Below are positions 12,916-58,680 of a stretch of 64,000 nt of DNA, piece after piece. The notes under the pieces are model-generated. The model saw only the letters and a list, made by a program, of their open reading frames with translations, ran no database searches and was not told the DNA's origin. Each line of letters begins with the position of its first letter. The stretch's first letter is position 1. Both the position numbers and the translations under genes were made by a program. The stretch comes from a virus, in IMG/VR virus record IMGVR_UViG_3300024344_002032, positions 23,859-87,858 of that record; one strand, given 5' to 3'.

Positions 12916-12918
12916 ATA

Positions 12919-12926
12919 TATAAATA
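12919..12926 (-). promoter_or_regulatory. Putative late promoter TATTTATA
   Basis: Recurrent octamer occupying a 12-nt intergenic gap. Confidence 0.6.
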
Positions 12927-17459: not shown

Positions 17460-17460
17460 T

Positions 17461-18198
17461 TTAGACTCCTTGTTTTTTGAGGATTTTTTGTTTTTCAATC
17501 CATCGCTTTGCAATAGGATTTTTAATAGGTTTTTTAATAAATTTATCAACACCTTTTTTCACCAATATATTAAATTTGTTTTGTGCTTGTTTTGCATCTA
17601 AAGTTTTACTGTTATCTACTATCAAAAAGTTTTGTTTGAAAAGATTTTGAAATCTACCTAAATTTTTCTGAACATCTTCCCAAGATTTTTGTAATAACTT
17701 TGGTGGTAGTACTCTATCTCTTTCTTGATTTCTTTTTTGTGCTACTTCTAATGAAGTATTCACAAAGATCATATAAGTATCATAACCATCTTCTTCAAGT
17801 TCTCTTTTCATTTTAGCAAGTTTACCAAAGTCGTGACCAGTGCCATCAATAATCATACCTAATTTTCCGTCTTTATATAACTTCATCCGTTGAGCGGTAA
17901 GTTCTTTACTATAATCTCTTAATCCACTTTGACCTTTTGCTGTCAAATCTTTAAATACTTCATCTGGCATTTTATCTAAATCAGTACCAAATCCAAACTT
18001 TTTTAATAGAAATTTTAACTCTTTATCTGAGTTTACCATTTTCATACCAGAAGCAGAAATGTTAAGTCTATCTGGAATACCAAAAAGCTGCTTAACAACG
18101 AAAGTCTTACCACTTCCTGGACCGCCAGCAAGAAAAACTGCTTTAAATATGCCAGGATCGTTTACACCCTCTAATAATATATCCATTAACTTAATCAC
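17461..18198 (-). CDS. P-loop kinase (PNK / AAA_33 / zeta-toxin-like) with MIKLMDILLE N-terminus
   Basis: AGGPGSGKT Walker A, IIDGT, lid KRNQERDR; GTG start with GGAG SD. Confidence 0.75.
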   Translation of the reverse strand: MIKLMDILLEGVNDPGIFKAVFLAGGPGSGKTFVVKQLFGIPDRLNISASGMKMVNSDKELKFLLKKFGFGTDLDKMPDEVFKDLTAKGQSGLRDYSKELTAQRMKLYKDGKLGMIIDGTGHDFGKLAKMKRELEEDGYDTYMIFVNTSLEVAQKRNQERDRVLPPKLLQKSWEDVQKNLGRFQNLFKQNFLIVDNSKTLDAKQAQNKFNILVKKGVDKFIKKPIKNPIAKRWIEKQKILKKQGV

Positions 18199-28363: not shown

Positions 28364-29239
28364 CTAATGTATGTAATCTCCTATATGTTTTGAAATACAT
28401 AATCTATTTACTTCTGTACCTCTATTTAATTCTTTATGTTCGTCTCCACCAAAAGCAAACCCAACACAATCACTTTGTTCTAAATTGTGTTCTTTACAAA
28501 ATTTTTTAGATTCATTTCCCCATGTTTTCCAAGCATAATCTGGTTCAAACTCTTCTAATAATTTAATACCAATATATGCTGATAAATGATTGAATTGTTT
28601 CCATTCATTCATAATGTGTATATTATCATCATGATATTTTCGTGAATATCTCACACCAGCTCTTAATTTATTAGCATCATGAAAACCTTTACTCAAACTA
28701 AAGGTAATATCTTCAATACAACTATATTTTGAAAAATCAAAATCAATATTTTTTGCAATTAAATACCAAGCACAATCAATTAATACAGGAGCTCCTACTT
28801 CTTCACACTTGTCTAATACTTCTTTCATTCTTGGATGTTCTTTACAATAATCAGAAAATGGTAAACTTATAATAACTGCGTCATTAAAAGAAATACCTGC
28901 ATCATCAATATAATCCCAATCATGATATTTCTTCCAATTAGCTTTATGATAAAAGAACTCACCTTTAAAACATTTAAATCTTCTTTTGTTGTGTCTCATC
29001 CAAAATGAATCAAATGCTTGACTTGTTCCATTAATATAAGCCTTATATTTAAAATCCTCTAAACCACTCAATTTATTATACTTAGATGCCTTTATATATT
29101 TATCAAATACATTACAAAATCCTTGTGATATTGTCTTAGCTTGGAAAAATAATACATTACCATAATCATCTTTCTCTGTATTTATTTTTTTTAAAATAGT
29201 ATTCCAAAAATGACTAACATCTTTATCTGGAACAGCTTT
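28364..29239 (-). CDS. PLP-dependent transferase-like protein; frame is open 56 codons beyond the track start and may be fused to the upstream ORF
   Basis: LIDCAW and FSLSK motifs. The frame has no stop up to 29239 (KAVPDKDVSHFW...) and no canonical start in that extension. Confidence 0.55.
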   Translation of the reverse strand, partial: KAVPDKDVSHFWNTILKKINTEKDDYGNVLFFQAKTISQGFCNVFDKYIKASKYNKLSGLEDFKYKAYINGTSQAFDSFWMRHNKRRFKCFKGEFFYHKANWKKYHDWDYIDDAGISFNDAVIISLPFSDYCKEHPRMKEVLDKCEEVGAPVLIDCAWYLIAKNIDFDFSKYSCIEDITFSLSKGFHDANKLRAGVRYSRKYHDDNIHIMNEWKQFNHLSAYIGIKLLEEFEPDYAWKTWGNESKKFCKEHNLEQSDCVGFAFGGDEHKELNRGTEVNRLCISKHIGDYIH

Positions 29240-30965: not shown

Positions 30966-32904
30966 CTTTATTGTTCTCCATTATTGATTTATAACGACCT
31001 TCTTTTCTTCCCCACCAAAATAAATCTCTACACCATTTAATATAATCACCTTTATAATTCTTTCCAGCATTTGAATCAACTGTTAATTCATAACCACCAT
31101 TAGTTAAAGGTTTTCCTTTATTAATAACATCGTGAATATTATATGGTAACTTTAATTTATATGGATATTTTTTATCTGGATTAACTATTGCATTTTTTTG
31201 AAAATAAATTACAGTATCAAGAATAGTTTCATCTGAAATATAATTACTTTCTAAAATAAAATCTTTAATTTCTTGATAAAATAAATCTACTTTTTTCCAA
31301 ATCTTTACAATAGAACCCTCATCAAATTCCCAAGTTCTTTTATCTTCTAAATACCATCCCCAATGACGATCATTAATAAACACATCTTTTAATGCAACTT
31401 TAAACTCTTTTATCTCTTTACCTAAGACCGTATCTTGTTTATTAGAAAAATATTTATGTAATTTTTTATAAAAATCTTCAAAAGTTATATTAGAATAATT
31501 CTTTAAAAATCTAGACACAAACTGAGTTAAACCAAAGAAATGAGTTATCATTATAAACCATCTAAATTCATGTGCTTGTAACAATTCATCAAAACTCATA
31601 GTAGCTGTTTGAATCGCTATATTTTCCTCTTCACTTTCATCTATTTCAGTTTCAGTTATATGATAATACAATGCTTTAGTCTTGGTATATTTAATTTTAT
31701 ACTTATCAATATATTCTGGATCACCAAATGGTGTATTTGGTAATATACTCAATGGATAAATTCCTAAATAATTATGAAGTCCATAATTCATCAATTTAAA
31801 TATACCATCTTTAAAACTATCAAGAGTTTCTTCTGGCAAACCAACAATTAATTCTGCATATATCGGTAAATTAATTTCATTACATTTATCAATAAATTCT
31901 TTCATATCATCACCAACAATATTTTTTCTCATTACTGCTTTTAAAGTATCTGGATTAAATGATTGTAAAGCCATAGTTAATCCTTTTGCCATATTACCAT
32001 CTTTTAATTTTTGAGCAATAGGTATAAGTTTTATTCCTCTATCTTTTGCCCAATCATTTCGAAACACCATTGGAAAACCATATTTCTTTTTCAATTCAAC
32101 TAAAAGTTCTGCTATTTTATAATCTCTTTCAAAATATAATCCAAAATTAGAATCTGCATTATCAATATACTCAACTTTATTTTCTGCCATCCACATAAAT
32201 TCTTTTTGTATCTTCTGATAACTTTGTGGTTTTATTTTTTGAAAATATAAATCCCCAATCTCACAATAAGTACATCTATAAGGACAACCTCTAACAGATT
32301 CTACTGTAGCAGTGAAAACATATTTATCTTTCCACTTATCAACAAATCTATCCATCAATCCATTTAGATATGGACTTGGCATAGAATCAATATCTGCAAT
32401 TCTTTGTTGAGTTGGATTTGTTTTAAATTTATCATCTTTAAGTTTGTATGTAATACCATTTACTTTTGACCAATCTTTATCTTTTAAATTTTCTAATAAA
32501 ATTTGTTCAAAAGTTAATTCTCCCTCACCATGAACTAAAATATCAACATACGGATGTTCTTTAAAAAAATCTTGTTCATGTTTTAATCTATCTGCTGATG
32601 GTTGATGTTGTCCACCATAAATAATAATACAATCTGGATATTTTTCTTTTACTTTTGTTGCAACTTCATTATTAAATGCCCAATTCCAAACAAAACAAGA
32701 AAATCCAATTACTGATGGATTGTCAATATCATCAACAAATTTATCTATCTCATCACGAACAAATAAAATATCAGTAAGATTATAATTCTTTTCTATAGTT
32801 TTATTTGTTTGACAATGAGACCAAAGCAAACCTGTAGAGTATGGTAAACGAACTTGTCTACCATCAAAAACATATGATGCTTCAATTAGATATAAGTTTT
32901 TAAT
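30937..32904 (-). CDS. B12-binding radical SAM protein with non-canonical ATT start
   Basis: LPYSTG, GFSCFVWN, GEGE, RGCPYRCTYC, DSNFG, GLPEET. The frame extends 25 codons beyond the track TTG to an ATT 6 nt after GGAG. Confidence 0.85.
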   Translation of the reverse strand: MKNLYLIEASYVFDGRQVRLPYSTGLLWSHCQTNKTIEKNYNLTDILFVRDEIDKFVDDIDNPSVIGFSCFVWNWAFNNEVATKVKEKYPDCIIIYGGQHQPSADRLKHEQDFFKEHPYVDILVHGEGELTFEQILLENLKDKDWSKVNGITYKLKDDKFKTNPTQQRIADIDSMPSPYLNGLMDRFVDKWKDKYVFTATVESVRGCPYRCTYCEIGDLYFQKIKPQSYQKIQKEFMWMAENKVEYIDNADSNFGLYFERDYKIAELLVELKKKYGFPMVFRNDWAKDRGIKLIPIAQKLKDGNMAKGLTMALQSFNPDTLKAVMRKNIVGDDMKEFIDKCNEINLPIYAELIVGLPEETLDSFKDGIFKLMNYGLHNYLGIYPLSILPNTPFGDPEYIDKYKIKYTKTKALYYHITETEIDESEEENIAIQTATMSFDELLQAHEFRWFIMITHFFGLTQFVSRFLKNYSNITFEDFYKKLHKYFSNKQDTVLGKEIKEFKVALKDVFINDRHWGWYLEDKRTWEFDEGSIVKIWKKVDLFYQEIKDFILESNYISDETILDTVIYFQKNAIVNPDKKYPYKLKLPYNIHDVINKGKPLTNGGYELTVDSNAGKNYKGDYIKWCRDLFWWGRKEGRYKSIMENNKGDLQKKTMG

Positions 32905-37139: not shown

Positions 37140-38055
37140 TTGAATACCACTCTATAGTTTCTGTAATTCCATCTTCTAGTGTATAGTTTGGTTTAAACCC
37201 AACCGACTCTGCTCTACTTGTATCCATTTGTCGTCTCATATCACCATTTGGTTTTGTTGTATCATAATCTATTTCTTGTTCAAAATAATTTGCGATTATC
37301 TCTGCAATATCTGAAATTCTTACCTCTTTACCACTACCAAGATTTACTGGTACATTTATTTTATTTTCAACCATGTGTAACATACCACGAGCTACATCTT
37401 TAGAATAAATAAAATCTCTTATAGGTGAACCATCACCCCATACCTCTAATATATCATTGTTGTCGTGATATGCTTTTTTAATTAATGAAGCTATAACAGT
37501 AGATTCATCTCCAAAATTATCGTGAGGTCCATATATGTTAGCAGGTCTAACTATAGATATATTATCATATCCATATGTAGCTCTAATAGCATAACAACTT
37601 AACTCACCCATCCGTTTTATATAAGCTGGAACTTTATCATTCTCACTTGGAACTTTATTCCATACATCATCTTCTTTATAATATTCACTTGGTGGATAAA
37701 CTCCGATTGAACTTGTGTATAAAAACCAATCTGGTTTCCATTGTCCAACTGCCTGTATAACATTAGTATCAAACTGTACCATTGGTAAATAATCTGCAGG
37801 TTTTTCTTTTGCTCTAAGTGGTGAACCTTTAATTCCTGCTAAATGATAAACATGATCATAATCTGCAATTATACTTGTATTGGTTTTAAATGTCATATCA
37901 CAAGGTTCATAATCAACATTATCTGGCAAATCTTGTGGTATCTTAAAACCAACATCTGCAACACAAACCTCATCGTAAACCTTAGAACACAACTCTGTAA
38001 GTTGTCTTCCAACCATTCCTCTTCCACCTATTATGAGTGCAGTTTTATTTATCAT
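37129..38055 (-). CDS. NDP-sugar epimerase/reductase (GDP-fucose synthase-like SDR)
   Basis: IGGRGMVG, HLAG, RPANIYGPHD, WGDGSPIRDF; PAYIK at the YxxxK position; start revised. Confidence 0.85.
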   Translation of the reverse strand: MINKTALIIGGRGMVGRQLTELCSKVYDEVCVADVGFKIPQDLPDNVDYEPCDMTFKTNTSIIADYDHVYHLAGIKGSPLRAKEKPADYLPMVQFDTNVIQAVGQWKPDWFLYTSSIGVYPPSEYYKEDDVWNKVPSENDKVPAYIKRMGELSCYAIRATYGYDNISIVRPANIYGPHDNFGDESTVIASLIKKAYHDNNDILEVWGDGSPIRDFIYSKDVARGMLHMVENKINVPVNLGSGKEVRISDIAEIIANYFEQEIDYDTTKPNGDMRRQMDTSRAESVGFKPNYTLEDGITETIEWYSNEG

Positions 38056-38575
38056 TATAATAGTCTCCATACTCTATCAATAAAGTTGACCTATCAGCAT
38101 TATATGCATTTTCAAATTCTCTAAATATATCATCTGGCTCTTCTAATAACACTACGTCTACTTCATGTAACATTGATTTAAAACTCATAGTATAATCTTG
38201 TGTATGTTGAACACCACCATTAAGTGGATTCTTAGAACCAATTGAAGTTCTCATAATAACTTTAGGTTTAAATGTACCCTCTGTCATATGTTGCATTTTA
38301 TCTAAGTGGTTTACCAAACTATCCATACACCTTAACATAAAATCAAATCGTGGAAAACAACAAATAGGAACTAAACCATTCATAGCCATTCCTGTACACA
38401 TACCCATTTGAACTTCTTCAAATACTGGTACTTCAATCCTTTTATCAATATCTATTGTTTTTAAAGTATTGTATATTGCATTACCACTATAAGCAACTGA
38501 TTGTCCGATAAAAGTTGTATCTTCTTTTTTAGCCAACCACTCCATACTTCTTATTAGTTCATCTTTATACTTCAT
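38045..38575 (-). CDS. TPP enzyme E1-beta / transketolase pyrimidine-binding domain only
   Basis: EVPVFEEVQMGMCTGMAMNG and GVQH motifs; start revised to MKYKD. Confidence 0.8.
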   Translation of the reverse strand: MKYKDELIRSMEWLAKKEDTTFIGQSVAYSGNAIYNTLKTIDIDKRIEVPVFEEVQMGMCTGMAMNGLVPICCFPRFDFMLRCMDSLVNHLDKMQHMTEGTFKPKVIMRTSIGSKNPLNGGVQHTQDYTMSFKSMLHEVDVVLLEEPDDIFREFENAYNADRSTLLIEYGDYYNDK

Positions 38576-39159
38576 TAGAATAACACCCAATTTCCTGTTC
38601 CATGATGTGGGTAATCACTTTTATATTCATAGTGATATACATCTGCTGGTACTGTTTGCTTTCCACCCCAAGTTTCATCAACTGGAGTATTAGTGGAAAG
38701 ATTATTATCTTCAATTACAAACTCTAAAGGTAAGTTAAAGTTTCTGGCATATTTATATGTCTCATAAAACAATCCTGTTTCAAAAGTCATATCACCCACA
38801 AAACACCAAACCTTATTCTCCTCACCTTTCATTTTAATTGACATAGCAGTTCCAAGAGCTATCGGTAATATTCCACCAACAATAGATGATGAATAGAATT
38901 TTGGTTTATCTGAATATACACTCATACTCTTACCACGAACAATCATATCCATAAGTGTATCTCTTGGAATACCATGCAGTAATGCATGATAATGATTTCT
39001 CCAACTACAAAATACCCAATCATCTTTATCAATGTTTTTAAATATTTCAATTAATGGTTCTTCATTATTAGAACTTAAATGAACTGGTGCTTTAATCTCA
39101 CCAGCTTCATATCTCTCTTTAACTTCTGTTTCAAAGTCTATTAAATATTGTTTATCCAT
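38575..39159 (-). CDS. TPP enzyme E1-alpha-like subunit (short)
   Basis: HLS, R-x-H, SIVG and TPP-binding GD...EDNN motifs. Confidence 0.85.
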   Translation of the reverse strand: MDKQYLIDFETEVKERYEAGEIKAPVHLSSNNEEPLIEIFKNIDKDDWVFCSWRNHYHALLHGIPRDTLMDMIVRGKSMSVYSDKPKFYSSSIVGGILPIALGTAMSIKMKGEENKVWCFVGDMTFETGLFYETYKYARNFNLPLEFVIEDNNLSTNTPVDETWGGKQTVPADVYHYEYKSDYPHHGTGNWVLF

Positions 39160-40028
39160 TTTGACACTACCTCTTTTGCAAATTTGTTATGTGCTATATT
39201 AGATGGATGTTCATCTACTGCTGATCCATCTCTATTTTTTCTATCTCCTGTAATATATCTTTCTTCAAATGGTAGATTATCTACACTCCATTCTGTTATA
39301 CCACCTAATTTTTTGTGAAACCAAAAATTATCCCAATCTATCATTTTCCACAGGTGTCTTATTTCGATAGGATATCTTGGTATCTTTGGTAATTGATAAA
39401 ATATATTCCAACCACCAAACATTTTGTATTTAATATCTTTAGATTTAAAATACCATTGTAGTCTTAAAATATGTTCTAAAGTTTTTGTTACAGAAAATAC
39501 TTCATTACTATAATATTTGTAATGATACTTTGACATCGATTCTTTAGCATAACTATGCTTTAACCACATCATATTTTTATTAATTCTTGTAACTGCTTCC
39601 CAATTTATATTACCCTCACCCGTACCTCCGCCATCTAATGCTGGTATAAAGTGTGTAAGTAAATTTTTATCTGTTTTACTACTAGCGTCAATTATATCTA
39701 CTAAAAATTCTTCTCTTTCAGGTGCAGTTAATTGAACACAAACATAATCAACTTTTAAATTTAATTCTAATAATTGTTCTACTTTATAAATTACTGCTCT
39801 TGATATGTAACCATTACCTGCTCCTGGTAAAGCAGTATTATATACTTTAGATTTTGGAATGATATCTTCTAAATGTAATGCCCAACTTTTATAACCACTC
39901 TCAGGTTGATAATCATCAAGATTATCCTGCATACCATGAGAAGCATAATCTATACAATTTCTTGTTTCAGTAAAACTACATCCAGCTGTAACTATATTTT
40001 TCTTAACTCCTTTATATCTGATACTCAT
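39141..40028 (-). CDS. SGNH-like hydrolase / acyltransferase candidate
   Basis: AGCSFTE, N-x-A-x2-GAGN and C-terminal DEHP. Confidence 0.55.
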   Translation of the reverse strand: MSIRYKGVKKNIVTAGCSFTETRNCIDYASHGMQDNLDDYQPESGYKSWALHLEDIIPKSKVYNTALPGAGNGYISRAVIYKVEQLLELNLKVDYVCVQLTAPEREEFLVDIIDASSKTDKNLLTHFIPALDGGGTGEGNINWEAVTRINKNMMWLKHSYAKESMSKYHYKYYSNEVFSVTKTLEHILRLQWYFKSKDIKYKMFGGWNIFYQLPKIPRYPIEIRHLWKMIDWDNFWFHKKLGGITEWSVDNLPFEERYITGDRKNRDGSAVDEHPSNIAHNKFAKEVVSKWINNI

Positions 40029-40543
40029 CTATCTCTCGCACTCAATATTGGTTTAACTCCAGTAGGCCAATCAATACCCAATCTAACATCATTCCATTTC
40101 AATGTCTCTTGTCCATCAATATCAACATAATCTTCTGGATAAGATTGTGTATAATGAAACAAACATTCATCACTTAGACAGAGATGTCCATTAGCAAAAC
40201 CTGGTGGTACTAAAACACTCAAATGATTTCTATCTGTAATTGTAAAGCTATCCCATTTTAAATAATTGACTGAATCGGGACGATTGTCCACTACGACTAA
40301 ATATATTTCTCCCCACACACAACTGATATATTTCCAAGTAACACCATCTGTGTGTAATCCACGTAATACATCTTTTCTAGAACGGGTAAATTTAGATATT
40401 TTCCATATATTATTTTTTGGTAAAAGATTACGACCTTTTTCCCAAAACGTCCACATTTCACCACGATAATCGTGAAATGGTTTTGGTTGAAGTAATTTCA
40501 CCTCAGGAAGTATTTCTGATCCTGTAACTTTAGTTTTAAACAT
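40025..40543 (-). CDS. rfbC: dTDP-4-dehydrorhamnose 3,5-epimerase family
   Basis: DYRG, VLRGLH, VVDNR, VPPGFANG, WND...WP...LSARD; start revised to ATG 40543 (GGAGG SD). Confidence 0.9.
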   Translation of the reverse strand: MFKTKVTGSEILPEVKLLQPKPFHDYRGEMWTFWEKGRNLLPKNNIWKISKFTRSRKDVLRGLHTDGVTWKYISCVWGEIYLVVVDNRPDSVNYLKWDSFTITDRNHLSVLVPPGFANGHLCLSDECLFHYTQSYPEDYVDIDGQETLKWNDVRLGIDWPTGVKPILSARDR

Positions 40544-40568
40544 AAAAAAAGCCTCCAATTCAGGAGGC
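40544..40568 (-). terminator. Intrinsic terminator and SD-sequestering hairpin
   Basis: GCCTCC-TGAATT-GGAGGC-TTTTTTT directly before the ATG. Confidence 0.75.
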
Positions 40569-40662
40569 ATCAACTAATTTGATGCCACTCTTGTTTTATA
40601 GTCATTTGTGTAGAGAGTTTGGACTTTCAAGTTTTCACTTGGGTTAGCTCTACCCGACTCAT
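40544..40662 (-). promoter_or_regulatory. Riboswitch/attenuator-like 5' leader
   Basis: Nested stems with a GAAA-tetraloop hairpin, then an 8-bp hairpin overlapping a GCCTCC/GGAGGC+U7 terminator that also hides the SD. Confidence 0.7.
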
Positions 40663-40663
40663 A

Positions 40664-40671
40664 TATAAATA
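40664..40671 (-). promoter_or_regulatory. Putative late promoter TATTTATA
   Basis: Context GATATTTATATATGAG. Confidence 0.65.
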
Positions 40672-40674
40672 TCA

Positions 40675-41973
40675 TTATTGCGTTAAAAAATACAGTTTAT
40701 TATACAAATCTGTAAATGGATTAGGATTATATTCTAAAATTCGTCTCCAATTATGTAATAGTACTTCATCCATACTATAATACCATTTATGTATCTCTTG
40801 TTTACTCATATTACACAATCTTTTAATTTCATCTACTATCATCAACATTCTTTTTTCACAATCTTTTTCTTTATCATATGATTCATCAATCCAGGGAGAA
40901 AAAGATTTAAATCCTAATCTTCTTAAACTATCCAATGAGTTTGGTGGACCTATCCAAATAAACGGATGAAACTGCCCAAGTGGTTTCCAAAACTTTTCAT
41001 CAGGATGAAACCAGGGTGTATCAAAACTTGTAGAAGTAACTAAAGAAAAATATGCATCATTATAAGTTTTAGGATAAATTCCTTTCCAAGAAGATATATA
41101 ACCATCAACCAAAATATCACTTGGAATATCTATTATCATTGGTGATTTTTCTTTTACCTTTTCCCAATATGGTTTAATTTCTTCTTTTAATTTATCTGAA
41201 TATATTGGTGTTTTCCAATTTCTCGAAGATGGTTTCCAGTCATCTCCATCTTCTGTATTTATTCTATCTATCGATCCTAAACTAACTAAACCTTTATCTA
41301 ATAAATTTTCTTTTAATAAAAAAGATATCAATACCGTTCTATGTAATTTTGGTGATCTATTATAACATAAAAAATAGTTATTTCTTATTTTTTCATAATC
41401 AAGATTTTCTAATTTATTAATTCTACAATCAGATGTTGCGTGTTTATAATCTTGTCGATAAACTGTAGATACGTGGTTGTAATAATAATCTATACTAAAA
41501 ATATTATCTGTTTGTTTTATATTTGGATTATTAGTTAAAAACATAAAATTGTTTTCGGAAATAGAATTATCATTACAAAATTTATTAACATCTTTATAAA
41601 AGTCTTTATGATTATCTCCCTCATGAATATAAGATATACACAATATAGCATTACCATTTTGAATATCTTTAAATACATCTTTATTAATAAGTTCTAGTAA
41701 AGATTCGAATAAATCAGTATGTACACTTTGTGGTTCTACCACATAAATGTATTTTTTACTTCTATCATTAGTTAATACTATTTTAAATTCACTTTGATAG
41801 TTTTTATAATTTTGTTCACCAACTGCTTTTGTTATTAAAAAACCAAAATGACTAAATGTAAATCCTTTATTATTCGGTGTACAATTTGGAATTAAATTTA
41901 ATTCTTCAGCTGATTGATTTTTCCAAACTATATCTTTAGATAAACAATCGTAATATAACCTTATTTCTTTCAC
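40675..41973 (-). CDS. Putative glycosyltransferase, paralog family A
   Basis: FLCYNR...HR, DEKFWKP...HPF...GFKSF...DESYD. Confidence 0.5.
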   Translation of the reverse strand: MKEIRLYYDCLSKDIVWKNQSAEELNLIPNCTPNNKGFTFSHFGFLITKAVGEQNYKNYQSEFKIVLTNDRSKKYIYVVEPQSVHTDLFESLLELINKDVFKDIQNGNAILCISYIHEGDNHKDFYKDVNKFCNDNSISENNFMFLTNNPNIKQTDNIFSIDYYYNHVSTVYRQDYKHATSDCRINKLENLDYEKIRNNYFLCYNRSPKLHRTVLISFLLKENLLDKGLVSLGSIDRINTEDGDDWKPSSRNWKTPIYSDKLKEEIKPYWEKVKEKSPMIIDIPSDILVDGYISSWKGIYPKTYNDAYFSLVTSTSFDTPWFHPDEKFWKPLGQFHPFIWIGPPNSLDSLRRLGFKSFSPWIDESYDKEKDCEKRMLMIVDEIKRLCNMSKQEIHKWYYSMDEVLLHNWRRILEYNPNPFTDLYNKLYFLTQ

Positions 41974-43523: not shown

Positions 43524-45169
43524 AATACTTTATATAACTCCATAATTTTATTTATTGTTTCTTTGGCTGGGTTTAATTTAACAAAATGTTTAAAGTTGTG
43601 AACAAGAACATCTGCTTGTTTAACATACCAATCCAATAATTGTGTTTTACTCATCTCACATAATCTATTAACTTCTGATAACAACATCTTTGACCTTTTA
43701 TCAAAATCTTTTTCATCATCATAACTTTCATCAATATATGGTGAAAATGTTTTATAACCTAAATTTTTTAACTGTTTAAGTGAACCATAATTTGAAACTA
43801 AAAGAAATGGATGAAAACACATTATATCTTTCCAAATTTTTTCTGTTAGATATATCGTATCGTTACTTGTAGCAAATGTATTATAAGTATATGAAAAGAA
43901 AGTGTTATTGTAAAAACTTTCATCCCAAGCTGTAAATCCATTCACATCATCAAAAGATTTTTTATCAATATACAATGGTAATTTGTTTAGTAAATCTTTA
44001 ATATTATCATGATGTTTAATTTCGTCATTATTAAATAATTCACATTGTAAATTAATAGTTAAAGAAAACTTATCAATTATATCTTTATCAGAAATAATTT
44101 TATTAAGTTCGTAATCTGTATTATCTTTTAATTTATCTTTTAATTTTTCTGATATATATGGTGAATTAAATAATCTTTCTTTTGATAAAATAAATGAAGT
44201 TAAACCTTTTTCGTGCAATCCATGATAGTTTAATCCTAATGAATGAAATAGTCTCCAATCCTTAACTAATTTACAAAGACATAAAAAACTTTTCATATCA
44301 GATAAATTATCTTTTTTATAATTAAAAGCCTCTTCAAATTTATTTTCAGCCCACTTATCTAAAGAATCAACACCTATATTAATTTCTGGATTAACATCAT
44401 CAGTTGAAACTCCAAAACCATTCCAAACATCTATTGTACTTAAATGATATTTGTTAAGATTAGGTATAGGATTTGGTTCACGATTTTTCATAATAACTTC
44501 TGTCCAATTAAGAACCATTTGATTCATAGATTTATATTTGTCTTCTATCTTATAATTGGATGTTAAATAAACTATATTATCTAATGGAAAATTTTCTTTA
44601 GTTGCTAAATTATAAATTTCTTCTCCTATGTGTTCATAGTAACCTGCTTCCGATATTGACATATCATCTATAGATTGCATTGGAAATCCCTCATCTGACA
44701 TATCCACTACTAATAAAACTTTACCTTTTCTGATATATTCTTTAGTATGTTGTTTTATGTTAATAAATAATTTACCTCTGTCTTCTTTCCAATTATGAGG
44801 TCCAGATTTAGTTCCGATGATATAAATAAAAGGTATATCTTTTTTAATAAGATGTGTTGTATCGAAATTATATACCTTAAAGTTTTGATTATAAAAATAT
44901 CTCATTACACTATATAAATTATGCCAATCATTAGTTGTTTCATAATCATCAAACAATGGTAATGTATCAGCATCGTTTGACCAAATATTAGTTGGTCTAA
45001 TATGAGAAAATTTTTCTTCCATAATCTTTTGTATATTTGATTGTTGAGACCAATTATAATAATCCCAACCAAAATAAACATCATCTAAAAGACTTTGATC
45101 GACATATAAAGGATATGGTGATATACCATTGTTTGCTAAAGTTATATCATCAATCATAAACAAATTCAT
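43520..45169 (-). CDS. Putative glycosyltransferase, paralog family A
   Basis: LTEKIWK...HPF...GYKTF...DESYD. Confidence 0.5.
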   Translation of the reverse strand: MNLFMIDDITLANNGISPYPLYVDQSLLDDVYFGWDYYNWSQQSNIQKIMEEKFSHIRPTNIWSNDADTLPLFDDYETTNDWHNLYSVMRYFYNQNFKVYNFDTTHLIKKDIPFIYIIGTKSGPHNWKEDRGKLFINIKQHTKEYIRKGKVLLVVDMSDEGFPMQSIDDMSISEAGYYEHIGEEIYNLATKENFPLDNIVYLTSNYKIEDKYKSMNQMVLNWTEVIMKNREPNPIPNLNKYHLSTIDVWNGFGVSTDDVNPEINIGVDSLDKWAENKFEEAFNYKKDNLSDMKSFLCLCKLVKDWRLFHSLGLNYHGLHEKGLTSFILSKERLFNSPYISEKLKDKLKDNTDYELNKIISDKDIIDKFSLTINLQCELFNNDEIKHHDNIKDLLNKLPLYIDKKSFDDVNGFTAWDESFYNNTFFSYTYNTFATSNDTIYLTEKIWKDIMCFHPFLLVSNYGSLKQLKNLGYKTFSPYIDESYDDEKDFDKRSKMLLSEVNRLCEMSKTQLLDWYVKQADVLVHNFKHFVKLNPAKETINKIMELYKVL

Positions 45170-46403
45170 CCAAGTCAGGAATATAATTAATTATGTGTTG
45201 TTTTCTGTGCATATCAAGTTTTTTTGTATAAATTTTAAATTTGTATATTGCTTCTTCATCATCTAAAGTTTCTTGAAGTGTCGATAAATTACTTTTTAAA
45301 ATTCCTAACCATTGTTCTTCACCTGCACTCCACTCTACATCTTTTTTACTCTCAATAAAATTATCTATTCTCCCTATAGCAAGATTTTTTAATTTAGTTG
45401 GTAATATTCTACAATCATACCAATTAGGATATGTTACCCAATTACTAAAAGGAATTCTCCAAAAACCCAAATCACCTAATGAGTATACCCACTCTAATAA
45501 CTTATCATAATTCAAAACATTCAATGCTTGAAATGTAGAATGAACTTGTAAATCCATACTAAGTCCCTTTTTCCAATCAGATACCTGTTTTATATTTTTT
45601 TCTATCTTATCCCATCTAGATGGATATCTAATATAATCATCAACTTCTTTGTAACCATCAATACTCACTCCAAGATAAATATGTCTAAATTCTTTCCATA
45701 TATAAAACAACTCATCTTTTAATACAGTAAGATTTGTTGTATAAAATAAAACCATATTTTTTGCAATACCATGCTTAATACATTGGTTAAGAAAATCTGT
45801 ATGTTCTTTTATGATTAAAGGTTCTCCACCAAGAAAATTAACTTGCTTTAAATGCTTAAAATTATTTTCAAAGAAATCATCACTTAAAAATCTATCATCT
45901 ACTGATATGTTTGTTGTCGGTAATTCAAAATTATCCTTATATAATAATTTAGATTCTTTTTCCCATAAGTTAGAATTATCTACATTACACATTCTACATA
46001 TCAAATTACATTTATTACCTACAGTAAAATCTAAAAAAGTAACATATGGATCGTCAATCCGACCCTTATCATTCATAGACTCTAACATAATCTCTTTATA
46101 GAAACCACTTGCTAAAGTATTATTCCAAATAGTTCTATAACTTTCAGCACCATTATCCTCTGTTTGCCAACATCTAAAACAACCAGGGTCTTTTTTGTTT
46201 TCTAATATGTTTTTTCTTATTCTTGTATGTACATCACTATTAAATGCTTTTTCCATAGTAAAGTGTGGATTTGTAATTGATATTGGATTACCATCTTTGT
46301 CTTCTGGTATTTCATAATTATTACAACAAACTCTAACCTGTCCTTTTTGATCAAAGCTTAATGAAGTAAATAAATGTGAACAAAAATATTTTAAATCTTC
46401 CAT
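45150..46403 (-). CDS. Radical SAM protein with N-terminal twitch-like domain
   Basis: FC...CC...CFRC precedes CNLICRMC, GGEP, TTN and SIDG. Confidence 0.88.
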   Translation of the reverse strand: MEDLKYFCSHLFTSLSFDQKGQVRVCCNNYEIPEDKDGNPISITNPHFTMEKAFNSDVHTRIRKNILENKKDPGCFRCWQTEDNGAESYRTIWNNTLASGFYKEIMLESMNDKGRIDDPYVTFLDFTVGNKCNLICRMCNVDNSNLWEKESKLLYKDNFELPTTNISVDDRFLSDDFFENNFKHLKQVNFLGGEPLIIKEHTDFLNQCIKHGIAKNMVLFYTTNLTVLKDELFYIWKEFRHIYLGVSIDGYKEVDDYIRYPSRWDKIEKNIKQVSDWKKGLSMDLQVHSTFQALNVLNYDKLLEWVYSLGDLGFWRIPFSNWVTYPNWYDCRILPTKLKNLAIGRIDNFIESKKDVEWSAGEEQWLGILKSNLSTLQETLDDEEAIYKFKIYTKKLDMHRKQHIINYIPDLDEFVYD

Positions 46404-48634
46404 TAGTGTTTTCCTGTCATAAAAGTTCTTTTTAAATTAATTTTATATTTTTCAATATCTAAAGCATCAAGATAATTTGGTACACCATATTTCTTTTGTA
46501 AATATTCTTCATCCTCATATCTATCATTTAAATTTCCAATATCATGAAATCTATCATGAAAACTAATATCATATAAACTAATAAGAGTTTGTTCTTCTTT
46601 AGTTTGTGATAAATGAATGTGACCAGGATGAACTGGATTTTTATCCTCTTTAAATTTTCTAATAATCTGTTGTCTTCTATCTGTCCATGCTTGTTTATGT
46701 GAATATTTATATTTAATAGGTAATTGTATATGTACTGTTTTCTTTGCTCTCTCATCTATCGTTAATTTATTATCTATAGATAATCTATAAGTACCATCAA
46801 AATTTGATTCCCATTTAAACTTAGTAACCATTCTAGCACCATCTATATTTCTTTCACTATAATCTTCATCAAACTCAACCTCTATTTCATAAGGACCATT
46901 TAACTGATGCATTAACCAACACCAAACTCTTATTTCATTTCTTGTTTCTATTTTTATAGTATCTTCTATACTGACTGAAGGATCGTATTCTCCTGTTTCT
47001 GGTATATTAGCAAACTCCAAATAAGGAACATTATAATCTATATCTTTTATAGCAAATTGATGTGGAAATTGTCTTCTATTATGTGTTTGTTGCCAAAATG
47101 TTCCATTATGTTTTGGAGTCCATTCTTTAAATTCTTTTTGATTAAATATAGAATCCTTATCTTTAAACTTCAAATATTTTATATCATCACTTACAGTCCA
47201 AAACCCTGAATAATATATCTTATATATGTTCAAAAACATATGACATAACTTTAATCTTAAAAATCTATTAATATATGTATTTTTTAAATCCCAACTAATC
47301 CAATCATAAAATATATTTCCCAAATCAGTAATATTAAATACATCTCTATATTGATCAAGTGCCGTACCTGGAGTTACTCCTGCAGGAAATTGATTTGCTG
47401 CTACTACAGGAATATAATGTTTGTTCTTATATAAGAAATATAAACTGATTATCCAATCAACGTGATTTTCTTTTGGGTATCCTGATATCCAATTAGCATC
47501 CATACGAATACCATTTCTCCAACATGCTTCCCAAAGTTGTTCTACTCCCTCAACTGTCTGTCTCTTTTCTATAACCTCAAGTATCTTAGGTGTTCCACTC
47601 TCCACTCCAATAGACAACCACTTAAATCCTGCTTTAGAAGCTACTTTCATTAAATCATTATTCATCTCTTTATGTGTTCTTGCATAACCACCAAAACTTA
47701 AATCTTTTAGTCTTGGGTCTTTCTCTACTTCTTTAGCCATCTCATTTACAAATACTTTGAATTGTGGCATAGAACCATTGACAAGAGAATCTACAAATGA
47801 GAAGTGTGTAACTCCATACTTGTTAACTTGTTCAAGAACTTCTTCTTTAATATCAAGACCTTTTCTAAATCTAAAAATTCTTGTCTCTGAACAAAATGTA
47901 CATTTATAAGTACAACCACGTGAACCTTGTAATGGTAAATGTGTATGTCCCTCATAATGAAATTGTGCATATGCTGGCAAGTCTACACCATCCCAATTAG
48001 CATTTGGTATAACAGTTAAATCTTTTTGTGGTTCTCTCATACCTGTAGATATTGGTTCTCCGTAATCATCCCATGTCCATATACCACTTACTTCTTTATA
48101 ATCTGTTTTATTTTCATAACAATCTACCAAATCATTTATAATTAACTCACCCTCAGTATCACAAGAAACTTTAATCCAATATCTATCTGGTTCTCCCTCA
48201 GGTGTAGATTGTCTCAAACCACCTTTAGGTGCATTCCAACAATAAGCACCACCATAAAAAATATGTATTTTTGGATTTTTATTATACAATCGTTTAGCAA
48301 TATAATCTGTTACTACAATGTTTGAGAAGTAAGTTGTAAATGTAACAATATCAAACTGTGCCATTTCTTCTATCAACGTATCCCAATACTCTTTATAAGC
48401 AGGAAGAATTCTATCTTCAAAAGAATGATCATTAGTCCAAAAGAAATGACCAGTTGGTGCCCACAATTCTTCTTGTGAATCTTGGTCTACGTGTATAGCA
48501 GATAGTAAGTTAACATGAAATTGTTTTACTTTTCTACCTTTGGTTTTTAAAGCACCAGCTAATAAACCAAGACTTAGTGGTGGTGTTTCTAAAGACCAAG
48601 CGGGACACATTACTACTGCTACTTTAGCTTTCAT
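46403..48634 (-). CDS. Large B12-binding radical SAM protein
   Basis: PPLSLGLL, EGE, SRGCTYKCTFC, GVESG, GYPKE. Confidence 0.88.
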   Translation of the reverse strand: MKAKVAVVMCPAWSLETPPLSLGLLAGALKTKGRKVKQFHVNLLSAIHVDQDSQEELWAPTGHFFWTNDHSFEDRILPAYKEYWDTLIEEMAQFDIVTFTTYFSNIVVTDYIAKRLYNKNPKIHIFYGGAYCWNAPKGGLRQSTPEGEPDRYWIKVSCDTEGELIINDLVDCYENKTDYKEVSGIWTWDDYGEPISTGMREPQKDLTVIPNANWDGVDLPAYAQFHYEGHTHLPLQGSRGCTYKCTFCSETRIFRFRKGLDIKEEVLEQVNKYGVTHFSFVDSLVNGSMPQFKVFVNEMAKEVEKDPRLKDLSFGGYARTHKEMNNDLMKVASKAGFKWLSIGVESGTPKILEVIEKRQTVEGVEQLWEACWRNGIRMDANWISGYPKENHVDWIISLYFLYKNKHYIPVVAANQFPAGVTPGTALDQYRDVFNITDLGNIFYDWISWDLKNTYINRFLRLKLCHMFLNIYKIYYSGFWTVSDDIKYLKFKDKDSIFNQKEFKEWTPKHNGTFWQQTHNRRQFPHQFAIKDIDYNVPYLEFANIPETGEYDPSVSIEDTIKIETRNEIRVWCWLMHQLNGPYEIEVEFDEDYSERNIDGARMVTKFKWESNFDGTYRLSIDNKLTIDERAKKTVHIQLPIKYKYSHKQAWTDRRQQIIRKFKEDKNPVHPGHIHLSQTKEEQTLISLYDISFHDRFHDIGNLNDRYEDEEYLQKKYGVPNYLDALDIEKYKINLKRTFMTGKH

Positions 48635-49643
48635 TTATCTCTTCTTTTTTTATTATTCTAAACTCTTCATTTTTTCTTGTTTTAGGTATTATAACATCCG
48701 TTCCACAAGTACAATGATTTTTAGGACATATAACAGGACTTCCTATATGATTTAAATCTTCTACTTTCCAAGTATTAATATTACTAAATATATCACTAAC
48801 ACCACAACTACCAGCGCTAACATCACCTCTTGGACTTATAAAAATTGCATCATTTAAATAACAAGTCCATCCTTGAAAATTAGTTAATTTTTCTGCTGAT
48901 AATCTATTAGAATTTACAGGTCTGACTTTACCATCGTTCCAAACCTCTAAACTATAAGCAGGTTTGAACTTTCTTCTTTCATTTACCTTTCCCCATTTCC
49001 TCATATAACCATCTGTCTCCTTAAAAAAGTCATTTTTCCAATCTTCATCATAATCCCACATCTCTGCACTTGTAGATAAATCTTTTAATAATGGGACCCA
49101 TTCTACAACACAATTATCCATTTCGTCATAAATCTTTTTACCAATATCAATACATTCTTGAAATCTACTCTCTTCCATCATAATTCTCAATGCTAAATAA
49201 TTCATTTTATCTTGTAAAAATTTAGCATTCTTAATATATTTATCATACTTAATATATTCAATATGATAACTTGCTACAACATCTTGAAAGTAATAATAAT
49301 TATCTAACCACCAATTTAAAGGGTTACTTAAATTTGTATTAATAGCTAAAAGTGGTGTATTACATTTTTCGTGTAAAAATTTTGCTATTGGTATAAGTGG
49401 TTTCCAATAAGTTGGTTCACCTCCTGAAAAAAAGAACTTAAATGATTCATAACCAAGTGATTGATATTTTGATATCATAATATCTAAAAATTCTATATAC
49501 TTGTCTGTATCTTTATTTAAATTATTGCCACCCCAATTACCCTCATTACAATAAGAGCATCTAAAGTTACACCAATCATTAACTTGCCAAGTAACATTCA
49601 TATACTTGTTTTCACCTGGTAATATTTTTAATAACTCAGTCAT
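48624..49643 (-). CDS. Radical SAM protein with C-terminal Cys cluster
   Basis: CNFRCSYC, SGGEPT; C-terminal C...C...C-x4-CxC. Confidence 0.88.
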   Translation of the reverse strand: MTELLKILPGENKYMNVTWQVNDWCNFRCSYCNEGNWGGNNLNKDTDKYIEFLDIMISKYQSLGYESFKFFFSGGEPTYWKPLIPIAKFLHEKCNTPLLAINTNLSNPLNWWLDNYYYFQDVVASYHIEYIKYDKYIKNAKFLQDKMNYLALRIMMEESRFQECIDIGKKIYDEMDNCVVEWVPLLKDLSTSAEMWDYDEDWKNDFFKETDGYMRKWGKVNERRKFKPAYSLEVWNDGKVRPVNSNRLSAEKLTNFQGWTCYLNDAIFISPRGDVSAGSCGVSDIFSNINTWKVEDLNHIGSPVICPKNHCTCGTDVIIPKTRKNEEFRIIKKEEINES

Positions 49644-51063
49644 CTATCCACCAATTAGGTGTTTGTAAATGTAAATCAAGACTTCTTTCGTACTCTTCCT
49701 TTAAATCTTCAAATTCTAAAAAGGTATCAAAAAAACTATGTCCTCTAACCTTATCCATAAAGTTTGTGTATTGATAAAACATATATCTCTGATTTTCTTC
49801 TGTTTGTTCTACACCTTGACAATATTTTCCGTAACTACCATGTGCTTCCCAATTACTTTCTAAGTAAGAAATAATTTTATTAGCTGCACCATGTAAATCT
49901 AAATATTTATTATCATATGTAGAATAATCATAAAATTCTCTATAACGTTCTGCAGCAACTCCTCTATAACTCCAGGGAATTACTGTTGCTCTTAAATGTA
50001 ATGGTTGATCTATTATTATAGGCCAAAATGCTACTTCCCTTTTTAACTCTAAACGATTTAACCATCTCATTATTTTATAAGTTTCAAACATATTATATAC
50101 CTGAAATACATTATATATCTGAATCCTTACTTTATTTGGTAGTTGTATTAATTTTTTAAAATTAGTTTCTATATCTTTCCATACTGAACCATATCTTATA
50201 TATTCTTGTGAAGTTTTATAACCATCAATACTAACCTGAACCTCACTCTTATCAAAGAAAGATAATTTATCATATAAATTCATATTCCAAGTTGTAAGGT
50301 TAGTAGTAAATGATACATGACATTCTTTATTACCTATTTCAATTAAATGATTTATCATATCATCATTTGCTTTTATTATACTTGGTTCACCACCTGTTAC
50401 ATACAATCTTTTTAATGTTGGTGCTATCTTCTTAAAGTTATCTAAGAACTTTGGATTCTCATGCCACATCATATTAATTTTTGATATTTCATATTCTGAT
50501 GGATACCACATATCATATAACCAACTTGGCATAGAAGTTCCATACTTCTTAACTATATCTAATCGTTCAGCATTAATCCTACTACTACTATATCCCCAAC
50601 ACATTGTACATTTGAGATTACAATGATTACCTAATCTAAGTTCTAAACTATTTAATGTATCTTTAATAAATCCATCGTCATCCATCATCTTTATATTATT
50701 CTCTATGATATCTTTCATATGAGAATATACACCATCATCACTCATATAACTTTTTATACTGTCTAATCTTGTACTTGTTGGTGCGTCATGACCACCATAT
50801 GTCTTTTCTAAATTTTCAACATTCCAACATACATTACATTCTTGTATTTGTTCTCCATTTAAAAGTTTTTTTCTAATATCTCTCATGTGTTTAGAATTCC
50901 AAACTTCATCTATATCATCAGTAGCTACATTAAATGTAGAACCATCATCTTTCTTTAAATGTAAGTTTTCATTTTGAGCACAACATATCTTCATAGAACC
51001 ATCAGTATTATTATTTAGGTTCATAAAAGGAAACGGACAAAATGTTTTTGATTTAATGTTCAT
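49636..51063 (-). CDS. Radical SAM protein with N-terminal twitch-like domain
   Basis: FCPFPF...CC...CNVC precedes CNLKCTMC and GGEP; start revised. Confidence 0.88.
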   Translation of the reverse strand: MNIKSKTFCPFPFMNLNNNTDGSMKICCAQNENLHLKKDDGSTFNVATDDIDEVWNSKHMRDIRKKLLNGEQIQECNVCWNVENLEKTYGGHDAPTSTRLDSIKSYMSDDGVYSHMKDIIENNIKMMDDDGFIKDTLNSLELRLGNHCNLKCTMCWGYSSSRINAERLDIVKKYGTSMPSWLYDMWYPSEYEISKINMMWHENPKFLDNFKKIAPTLKRLYVTGGEPSIIKANDDMINHLIEIGNKECHVSFTTNLTTWNMNLYDKLSFFDKSEVQVSIDGYKTSQEYIRYGSVWKDIETNFKKLIQLPNKVRIQIYNVFQVYNMFETYKIMRWLNRLELKREVAFWPIIIDQPLHLRATVIPWSYRGVAAERYREFYDYSTYDNKYLDLHGAANKIISYLESNWEAHGSYGKYCQGVEQTEENQRYMFYQYTNFMDKVRGHSFFDTFLEFEDLKEEYERSLDLHLQTPNWWIDD

Positions 51064-52288
51064 AATCTCTAAAAAATTCAAGTTCAGGAGCTACTTGGTA
51101 TAAAGACTCTCCTCTTAGTTTATCTAATGGTGTATTCCTATCTATAAAATCAGGTACAAGATTTTCATAATTCTCTTGTTGTAAGAAATCAAGAACTGAT
51201 TCAAATCCTCTTTTTGCAGCACCATCTCCAAAGTTATCATCAATCCATTTTATATGATCTGTATATTTGTTAATAAATTTCTTTCTTTCTTTTGGTGGTA
51301 TAATCTGTATTCTATATTCTGTAGGATAAGTCAATATATTCATTCTAACATTTTGTGGTTCTAATAATCCTTTATCAATCCATTCTTTATGAAAGTCTGG
51401 TAAATGATATACATTCATAATACTGACTGTAGGTGTTATTTCAAAGTATACATCAGGACATTCTTTTATCATTCGTCTACGATTCTCTTCTATTACATCC
51501 CAATTAGTTCCTGCCCTAATCAACTCACCTCTTGCACCCATAGCATCAAGACTTGCAGCTATTCTTACATCTTTAAAACTATTCCAATACTCTAATATAG
51601 ATTTCTTTTTAAAATAAAGATTACTAAAGTTAGTTGTATATCTAAGTCTTACATCAATATCATTCTCAATCCAAAAATCTAATATCTTGTAATGTTCTTC
51701 TGTAATAATTGGTTCACCACCTGCCCAACATGCTTCCTCTACTGTCAATAACAATGGTTGTAAATCATCCCAAAATTTTTTATTCTCTAAGATATTCATC
51801 ATCTTTGGGTCTTCGGGTGTATAACCATATAATTTTACGTGTTCTTCATACCAAGCACTACTTAATTCTGGTCCACAAGTTCTACATCTAAAATTACAAA
51901 TATTAGAAACTCTAATATCCATATAACCCATATTTAATTCTTCTACAGTTCCATCAACTTGTGTAGTCTCTACTCTATCCCAATGTTTTCCATAATATTG
52001 ATTAACCATATTTCTTAATGTAAATACATTAGACTTTTCCATCTCATAACATCTACTACATTCTTTAGTCTCATCGTCATTTAACATATTCTTTCTAAGT
52101 TGTCTATACTTTTCGTTATTCCAAATCTCTGCTAAACTATTATCATTTAAATTACCATATTCAACTGTACTATCCGACATACAACAAGGAAATGCTTTAC
52201 CACTTGGCCACACGTGTGTGTGTATCCAGGGCATCATACAGAATACTTTTGATTCTTTAAGTTTTAATATTTTATCTCTAATACTCAT
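51053..52288 (-). CDS. Radical SAM protein with N-terminal twitch-like domain
   Basis: FCMMPW...PCC...CSRC precedes CNFRCRTC and GGEP. Confidence 0.88.
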   Translation of the reverse strand: MSIRDKILKLKESKVFCMMPWIHTHVWPSGKAFPCCMSDSTVEYGNLNDNSLAEIWNNEKYRQLRKNMLNDDETKECSRCYEMEKSNVFTLRNMVNQYYGKHWDRVETTQVDGTVEELNMGYMDIRVSNICNFRCRTCGPELSSAWYEEHVKLYGYTPEDPKMMNILENKKFWDDLQPLLLTVEEACWAGGEPIITEEHYKILDFWIENDIDVRLRYTTNFSNLYFKKKSILEYWNSFKDVRIAASLDAMGARGELIRAGTNWDVIEENRRRMIKECPDVYFEITPTVSIMNVYHLPDFHKEWIDKGLLEPQNVRMNILTYPTEYRIQIIPPKERKKFINKYTDHIKWIDDNFGDGAAKRGFESVLDFLQQENYENLVPDFIDRNTPLDKLRGESLYQVAPELEFFRDYEH

Positions 52289-52392
52289 TATTTGTATATA
52301 AAAGGATCTCTCTTTTTCAATTCTTTAATCTTTTTTCTATATCTTATTTCTAATCGTATTTTAGAAACTAATTTTTTAATCCACTTTATCAT
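52288..52392 (-). CDS. Small basic 34-aa protein (not in ORF track)
   Basis: MIKWIKKLVSKIRLEIRYRKKIKELKKRDPFIYK fills the gap exactly and is TAATG-coupled to the next gene. Confidence 0.75.
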   Translation of the reverse strand: MIKWIKKLVSKIRLEIRYRKKIKELKKRDPFIYK

Positions 52393-56860: not shown

Positions 56861-57053
56861 TTCTTCTTGGTGGTCTATTTGGATTACCCTCAACTTGCGC
56901 TTTTAATAGATTGTAAAATTCATAATAATACCACTCTATTCTTTCTTGATGTTGAACTAAATCAAGTTCAAGTAATGTATCTTCCATTGTTTGTAAAGAT
57001 GTAGCAATACTTTCAAGAGATTTTACTAATCTATCTATTTGTTGTTCTTCCAT
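56817..57053 (-). CDS. Small coiled-coil hypothetical protein
   Basis: ATG 57053 with AGGAG SD; heptad-like LESIATSLQTME. Confidence 0.55.
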   Translation of the reverse strand: MEEQQIDRLVKSLESIATSLQTMEDTLLELDLVQHQERIEWYYYEFYNLLKAQVEGNPNRPPRRNEKVEASDNSSVSE

Positions 57054-57061
57054 AAGAACTC

Positions 57062-58651: not shown

Positions 58652-58672
58652 TAAAACCTACTTTTTGTCATA

Positions 58673-58680
58673 TATAAATA
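58673..58680 (-). promoter_or_regulatory. Putative late promoter TATTTATA heading the GT7 / radical SAM operon
   Basis: Context ATATTTATATATGAC. Confidence 0.65.

Follow-up and report, generated by a model that had tools for sequence, protein, structure and literature searches.

The wcaG motif (RF01761) is an orphan riboswitch candidate known almost exclusively from marine metagenomes and T4-like marine phages, in which it lies upstream of exopolysaccharide and nucleotide-sugar genes, for example those for wcaG/fcl-type epimerases (PMC2864571). The manA motif (RF01745), a cis-regulatory candidate of marine phages and cyanophages, occurs near mannose and nucleotide-sugar genes. EAR and JUMPstart/ops elements are leaders of long polysaccharide gene clusters and govern read-through by processive antitermination. 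SAM-II/V, preQ1, fluoride and ZTP riboswitches are built on H-type pseudoknots and use terminators or Shine-Dalgarno (SD) sequences as expression platforms. To our knowledge, riboswitch candidates carried by phages are rare, and we know of no riboswitch for nucleotide-sugars. The leader described here belongs to an uncatalogued RNA family, which is new within a known kind of system and is carried by uncultured marine tailed phages.

The locus lies in a 64-kb stretch (the window) of an 87.9-kb IMG/VR virus record with a CheckV completeness of 43%. All genes of the window are on the minus strand. The record stems from a tailed phage, as indicated by a portal protein (phrog_213, E 6e-72), a large terminase and tail fibres. 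The portal shares 53-55% identity with its counterparts in Flavobacterium phage immuto and Microcystis phage Mel-JY01, suggesting that the phage is a distant T4-like myovirus. The leader occupies a gap of 131 nt (40544-40674) between a 432-aa open reading frame and an RfbC-like cupin gene. Its elements and the flanking genes are as follows.

40675-41973, minus strand: upstream open reading frame of 432 aa, without Pfam or PHROG family match; its stop codon lies 3 nt ahead of the promoter-like box
40661-40671, minus strand: promoter-like box TATTTATATAT, immediately ahead of the RNA and ending one base before the core
40583-40660, minus strand: conserved aptamer-like core (P1-P2-P3 and pseudoknot, 3' end GGCA), matched by covariance model R2 with 84.8 bits (E 2.7e-15)
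40655-40659, minus strand: P1 5' strand AGUCG, partner UGACU at 40600-40604
40648-40653, minus strand: P2 5' strand GUAGAG, partner CUCUAC at 40610-40615
40628-40641, minus strand: P3 hairpin CAAGU-GAAA-ACUUG, whose length varies within the family
40615-40622, minus strand: pseudoknot 5' strand CCAAACUC, on the 3' side of the P2/P3 internal loop, partner at 40585-40590
40610-40615, minus strand: P2 3' strand CUCUAC, whose first C (40615) has an alternative partner in the pseudoknot
40600-40604, minus strand: P1 3' strand UGACU, partner AGUCG at 40655-40659
40591-40599, minus strand: A-rich linker AUAAAACAA between P1 and the pseudoknot, near-invariant in 42 copies
40585-40590, minus strand: pseudoknot 3' strand GAGUGG, whose final GG is the first GG of hairpin H1
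40566-40586, minus strand: hairpin H1 GGCAUCAA/UUGAUGCC, putative antiterminator and anti-sequestor, found in all copies and always beginning with GGCA
40551-40568, minus strand: terminator-like hairpin GCCUCC/GGAGGC, with the SD sequence GGAGG (40552-40556) in its 3' arm and GCC (40566-40568) in common with H1
40544-40550, minus strand: U7 tract, both terminator tail and spacer between SD and AUG; a run of at least 5 U residues is present in most copies
40025-40543, minus strand: first downstream gene, RfbC-like cupin (dTDP-4-dehydrorhamnose 3,5-epimerase family; PF00908, E 2.2e-33)

The initial annotation had described the gap as more GC-rich than its surroundings, which was borne out. With a GC fraction of 0.359 (0.41 in the core), the leader gap is the most GC-rich of all intergenic gaps in the window; the others range from 0.11 to 0.32, and the window as a whole has 0.30. 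The gap had also been called the only long one in the island, and this is wrong: others lie at 29072-29222, 32830-32899, 52289-52375 and 56894-57061. The window contains an 11-codon open reading frame that starts at 40605 within the leader. Attenuation by a leader peptide was considered and rejected, because the ATG is absent from the other copies.

By eye, the leader had not matched any known riboswitch class, and database searches agreed with this impression. A scan of the 64-kb window against Rfam 15 at gathering thresholds was empty, and so were direct comparisons with the wcaG and manA models. Rfam scans by E-value of a 451-nt region (E up to 10) and of nine other member loci (E up to 1) returned only noise driven by the terminators (Phe_leader, RyhB and similar), all of it far below cut-off.

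The wcaG motif is the closest of the described elements in biology, since habitat, phage type and gene class are all common to the two families. Nevertheless, the RF01761 model (cut-off 42 bits) found no match at E values up to 10 in the whole 87.8-kb record. In the published wcaG alignment, both the sequence blocks and the stems are unlike those of the leader family (PMC2864571). According to the supplement of the same work, the motif carries UGGYG twice, whereas the core in the window has only GUGGCA (PMC2864571). A CCNAACC/GGNGG pseudoknot is not visible in the wcaG alignment, although this was not checked formally. Several of the wcaG sequences have an AGUCU...GACUAUAAAAG hairpin just upstream of the motif or in its 5' part (PMC2864571, supplement). 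This hairpin resembles P1 and the A-rich linker of the leader family. The likeness is unexplained; judged from the sequences, it could reflect a signal shared among phages or a distant relationship.

The manA motif, too, shares with the leader family its marine phage and cyanophage setting, its standing as a cis-regulatory candidate and the proximity of nucleotide-sugar genes. However, it is much larger (192 model positions versus about 80 in the leader core), and the RF01745 model (cut-off 55.2 bits) gave no candidate at E values up to 10 in the whole record. EAR and JUMPstart/ops resemble the leader in preceding long polysaccharide gene clusters and controlling read-through. They differ in output, which is processive antitermination in their case and a local terminator/SD hairpin here. 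EAR gave no Rfam hit, and the ops octamer GGCGGTAG, associated with RfaH, was absent from 40544-40674 on direct reading. The likeness to SAM-II/V, preQ1, fluoride and ZTP riboswitches is one of analogy only. It consists in a compact pseudoknot with a 3' strand that overlaps the expression platform, an A-rich strand beside the knot, and the placement of the SD sequence within the terminator. In contrast to these riboswitches, which it resembles neither in sequence nor by model and to which it gave no Rfam match, the leader has a P1 helix that encloses the knot. Full-text literature searches did not find any description of this leader motif, and the Melnitz paper concerns glutamine riboswitches only.

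Homologues were collected in four steps. Among 13 viral loci with RfbC-like relatives, the leader was obviously conserved in 5. Pattern scans with the conserved blocks then added a few more viral contigs and about 33 marine metagenome contigs; one of the scans of viral contigs gave chance hits only and nothing else was gained from it. The covariance model R2, built from 28 distinct cores, subsequently revealed divergent copies 1-2.6 kb upstream of rfbC in six further RfbC loci. A looser pattern scan finally yielded more copies. Altogether, 42 distinct copies were obtained from marine viral and metagenome contigs, all in the sense orientation and upstream of sugar-tailoring genes. As most copies were found with patterns that fix some of the blocks, apparent conservation is inflated.

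The R2 match at 40583-40660 is the sole hit in the window. Of ten phage records that were searched whole, nine, including a complete genome of 216 kb, contained one copy each, and a 30-kb fragment contained none. A metagenome contig of 2.9 kb (PVBE011530526.1) has two copies on its minus strand, at 225-305 and 2359-2451, about 2.1 kb apart. One precedes an Fcl-like SDR gene and the other a Gmd-like gene, so that each gene appears to have its own switch. In the GenBank phage collection, neither a megablast search with 5 kb around the leader nor a blastn search with a consensus-like leader produced a match. A pattern scan of 185,579 prokaryote genomes gave 4 chance hits only. The pattern covered just the main sequence type, and absence from host genomes is therefore unproven.

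The conserved core comprises about 78 nt and folds into P1 (AGUC/GACU), P2 and a variable P3. The stems that had been picked out from the window sequence alone (AGUC at 40656-40659 with GACU at 40600-40603, GUAGAG with CUCUAC, and the CAAGU-GAAA-ACUUG hairpin) are present on the minus strand as claimed. In the alignment of 42 copies, 94.2% of cells are paired, compared to 35-49% when the partners are slid. Changes on both sides affect 12 of the 21 pairs, and the observed values were not reached by any of 500 shuffles. The prediction that RNAalifold made on its own recovers P1 to P3, with compensatory changes in 8 of 13 pairs. It must be noted that the alignment (A4) was fitted to P1-P3 and thus favours these helices, while the pseudoknot was not fitted. 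The key compensatory changes were also read directly in the raw hits, outside the alignment.

The helices contribute unequally. The AGUC/GACU pairs of P1 do not change in any of the 42 copies, and hence these four pairs carry no covariation evidence. The fifth pair of P1 is variable (UA in 18 copies, AU in 3, GU in 3, CG in 2, GC in 1, unpaired in 15). P2 has compensatory changes in 4 of 5 pairs, with variants such as GUGGU/ACCAC, GUAGU/ACUAC, AUAGU/ACUAU and UAUGAU/AUCAUA. P3 alternates between CG and GC at the closing pair and among GU, AU, GC and UA or GC, AU and CG at others, and its longer versions carry inserts capped by UUCG. G-U pairs are frequent (one P3 pair is GU in 25 copies), a pattern compatible with a transcript in the gene-sense direction but not in the opposite one. 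The junctions (A/C)UAAC, GAAAG and AUAAAAC are near-invariant. For the AUAAAACAA linker, a role in groove contacts or in a ligand pocket, for example, can only be inferred.

A pseudoknot that the initial annotation did not contain links the aptamer-like core to the antiterminator. Throughout the family, the 3' side of the internal loop has the pattern CC-N-AA-CC-N and can pair with N-GG-N-GG located just ahead of an invariant CA. Paired cells make up 97.2% of the total, against 37-71% in slid controls. Three of the six pairs are compensatory, which is not the case for any pair in any slid control, and the covariation score was reached by none of 500 shuffles. The compensatory columns are the middle pair (28 AU, 8 UA, 2 CG), the pair that adjoins P2 (35 CG, 3 GC) and a third pair (40 CG, 1 UA), in which the window itself supplies the single UA (U-A at 40616/40589). 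As these columns were unpaired in the model used for aligning, the alignment was not fitted to the pseudoknot helix. The loop strand runs straight into the 3' strand of P2, identifying the pseudoknot as H-type. As judged from the alignment, the core is an H-type pseudoknot closed by P1, with near-invariant junctions.

Alignment columns 14, 83 and 114, corresponding to window positions 40648, 40615 and 40590, vary together (G/C/G in 35 copies, G/G/C in 3, A/A/C in 2). In copies with a G in the column of 40615, the partner of this G is a C in the 3' tail and not the G of column 14. The pattern suggests a base triple or, alternatively, competition between the final P2 pair and the first pseudoknot pair.

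Downstream of the core, the initial annotation had proposed a hairpin that overlaps a terminator whose 3' arm is the SD sequence of rfbC. All parts of this arrangement are present in the window: H1 at 40566-40586, a terminator GCCUCC/GGAGGC with U7 at 40544-40568 that has GCC in common with the preceding hairpin, and GGAGG 8 nt ahead of the ATG at 40543. The terminator has the features of an intrinsic terminator, namely a 6-bp stem (5 GC), a loop of 6 nt and a tail of seven U residues, which together span 40568 to 40544, and it is the only strong terminator-like site on the minus strand within 20 kb; termination itself was not tested. The overlapping arrangement recurs in every copy of the family with differing sequences. 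The arms of H1 covary (GGCAUC/GAUGCC, GGCACU/AGUGCC, GGCAUU/AAUGCC, GGCAC/GUGUC), and so do those of the terminator-like hairpin (GUCUCC/GGAGAU, UCCUCU/AGAGGA, UCCUUCAU/AUGAAGGA). In all copies, the GG of H1 is formed by the last two residues of the pseudoknot strand, and 2-3 nt are common to the 3' arm of H1 and the 5' arm of the hairpin containing the SD sequence. The latter is usually followed by 5-9 U residues and then by the start codon.

Three types of expression platform can be distinguished. In one type, H1 is followed by a terminator that holds the SD sequence. In another, H1 is followed by a separate strong terminator and then by the SD hairpin, the extra terminator being located inside or after H1. 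The third type, an SD hairpin without a run of U residues, is represented by a single copy (L178). The combination of a conserved core with varied expression platforms is a hallmark of riboswitches.

When the two shared G residues were barred from pairing, the SD/terminator hairpin gained 1-3 bp in the predicted fold, and this cost 0.2-0.6 kcal/mol. For the platform in the window, the hairpin grew from 3 to 6 bp (-14.0 versus -13.8 kcal/mol). The small cost implies that the two states are nearly isoenergetic, as a switch requires. In platforms of the GGCAC/GUGUC type, blocking of the GG altered the SD hairpin by just 1 bp, and the mean accessibility of the SD sequence barely changed (0.14 versus 0.09). 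In view of this small effect and of relay overlaps of only 2-3 nt, the ON/OFF logic is thermodynamically subtle, and its direction could be wrong.

The leader has what is expected of a riboswitch in a 5' UTR: a structured and conserved aptamer whose helices covary. That it is a real, conserved and pseudoknotted cis-regulatory RNA seems to us beyond serious doubt, short of certainty. We also think it probable, with considerable reserve, that it works as an OFF switch of the riboswitch type, by means of a hairpin that combines termination with sequestration of the SD sequence. The 131-nt gap would then be the 5' leader of an mRNA that starts with the rfbC-like gene. If something kept the pseudoknot closed, a small-molecule ligand being the likeliest candidate, the 3' strand of the knot would retain the two G residues that H1 needs. 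H1 would be weakened, freeing the 2-3 nt that it has in common with the next hairpin. This hairpin could then form fully, as an intrinsic terminator with the SD sequence in its 3' arm, and both transcription and translation of the sugar genes would drop. Without ligand, H1 would form, the terminator would be truncated and the ribosome binding site would be freer.

The first gene after the leader varies. By our own reading of the open reading frames, it is Gmd-like in about 15 copies, RfbC-like in 8, another SDR in 6, a 2OG oxygenase in 5, DUF6071 in 4, E1-beta-like in 3 and a B12-radical SAM gene in 1. One aptamer thus occurs with three types of platform and seven classes of first gene, all of them for sugar tailoring, as would be expected of a riboswitch-type element. 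The ligand is unknown, and neither ligand binding nor a termination event has been observed. The most economical guess is a product or intermediate of the NDP-sugar pathway of the phage. We offer only as a tentative proposal, more doubtful than not, that the leader represents a new class of riboswitches, with the core as aptamer and with a nucleotide-sugar, or a metabolite of the pathway closely akin to one, as ligand. If this were true, nucleotide-sugars would have their first known riboswitch, and marine phages would use it to silence their operon for glycan precursors as soon as the pool is full. The element is compact (about 80 nt), well defined by covariation including the pseudoknot, and tied to one clear pathway, so that direct bench tests could be confined to a few candidate ligands. 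It would also reveal by what means large marine phages control the timing or the amount of their costly synthesis of unusual sugars, which probably serve the glycosylation of virion or host surface components. If validated, it could also provide a small sensor part for synthetic biology.

A protein might take the place of the ligand. In this case, the leader would be an operator for an RNA-binding protein of phage or host, which clamps the pseudoknot or the junction and thereby sets the balance between H1 and terminator, in analogy to T4 translational operators and ribosomal-protein leaders. The single-stranded junctions GAAAG, (A/C)UAAC and AUAAAAC are long as well as near-invariant, and P1 is invariant, a constraint that is typical of recognition by proteins, so that these stretches would serve a protein-binding site just as well; moreover, the phages that carry the element are distant T4-like myoviruses, and T4-like myoviruses are known to use translational repressors. 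However, the first gene differs among seven enzyme classes and there is no obvious product that could regulate itself, no candidate RNA-binding protein was identified, and metabolite riboswitches are usually recognised by just this combination of a compact H-type pseudoknot and varied platforms. We consider a protein operator unlikely, while keeping it in mind as a serious alternative. A self-cleaving ribozyme, or an element for processing or stability of the 5' UTR in the manner of glmS, would involve no conformational switch at all. The very strong conservation and the compact pseudoknotted fold would suit a ribozyme, as would the location of a phage-borne element ahead of sugar metabolism genes, given that glmS precedes an amino-sugar gene. 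On the other hand, no Rfam ribozyme family matched, even at E values up to 10, and a ribozyme would have no use for the conserved overlaps that connect the pseudoknot with H1 and H1 with the terminator/SD hairpin, which leaves this explanation with very little support.

Two further explanations were weighed. The promoter-like box at the 5' end and the terminator hairpin with U-run at the 3' end could delimit a free-standing small RNA gene that merely abuts its neighbour. Yet in nearly all copies the 3' arm of the terminator doubles as the SD sequence and the U-run as the spacer of 6-9 nt ahead of the sugar gene's start codon, L178 has an SD hairpin but no U-run, and every copy is in sense orientation with a gene immediately downstream; a separate small RNA gene is therefore highly improbable. 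The structures might also be chance hairpins next to an ordinary terminator of the upstream gene. For the window copy alone this could not be dismissed, because the single-sequence fold of the 146-nt leader was not significantly better than shuffles (z -1.45; 13 of 200 shuffles equally stable), and a scan for sigma-70 promoters was at the background level of AT-rich DNA (129 found versus 148 expected). The evidence against chance is thus comparative: the compensatory changes among the 42 homologues, which affect three helices as well as the pseudoknot, lie far above shuffled and slid controls and make an accident scarcely credible. The covarying homologues that the initial annotation called for are indeed found, with 42 distinct copies and compensatory changes in P2, P3 and the pseudoknot. 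Neither of the outcomes that had been set beforehand as refuting it (lack of covarying homologues, or an Rfam hit) occurred, which supports its interpretation of the leader as a regulatory switch.

The promoter motif noted ahead of the leader is real in the sense of a recurring box: the minus strand of the window has seven copies of ATTTATATA, five of them in short gaps directly upstream of genes. These gene-proximal (T)ATTTATATA(T) boxes, at 1308-1316, 8814-8822, 12917-12925, 40662-40670 and 58671-58679, likely represent a phage promoter consensus. In most copies of the family, the box, or TATAAATA in other lineages, lies 1-6 nt ahead of AGUC. We infer that the box is a phage promoter and that the transcript starts at about the first base of P1, although no transcript start has been observed. 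The box at 12917 ends one base before an ATG, which would imply either a leaderless mRNA or a later start codon. GACTATAAAAC was considered as an internal late promoter of the T4 type and discarded, as ACTATAAA is not enriched in the window and not found upstream of its other genes.

Marine Logan metatranscriptome contigs from two runs of one study contained pieces of rfbC (within window positions 40032-40447) at 100% identity. One contig from a relative with 90% identity spans 40578-41104, extending across the core and into the 3' end of the preceding gene. Such contigs cannot show the start, end or strand of a transcript and say nothing on regulation. The platform of this relative diverges past GGCA.

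With regard to the proposed control of a 22-kb sugar-tailoring operon, the stretch from 40543 to about 18230 consists of sugar-tailoring enzyme genes with two small gaps only and no obvious terminator. Control of the full 22 kb by the leader is plausible, but not shown. A Zeta-toxin/AAA_33-like kinase gene (17461-18198) and a GH108 endolysin gene with PG_binding_3 (16977-17552) end the block of sugar genes. Two genes after rfbC, at 38045-39159, lies a minimal pair of TPP-enzyme genes, E1-alpha-like (194 aa) and E1-beta-like (181 aa). In three other phages (L125, L147 and L178), the leader is itself followed first by an E1-beta-like gene.

The glycan island as a whole is very large and is placed between the tail-fibre and packaging genes. 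It encodes GT7-type glycosyltransferases, six radical-SAM proteins, SDR epimerases/dehydratases, UDP-glucose/GDP-mannose dehydrogenase, 2OG oxygenases, a DegT aminotransferase, B12-radical SAM proteins and a carbamoyltransferase. Radical chemistry is unusually abundant for a phage. The six radical-SAM/SPASM-type genes form a tandem array at 45150-53887, upstream of the leader, and three GT7 glycosyltransferases with Laminin_G_3 inserts are encoded at 53874-58651.
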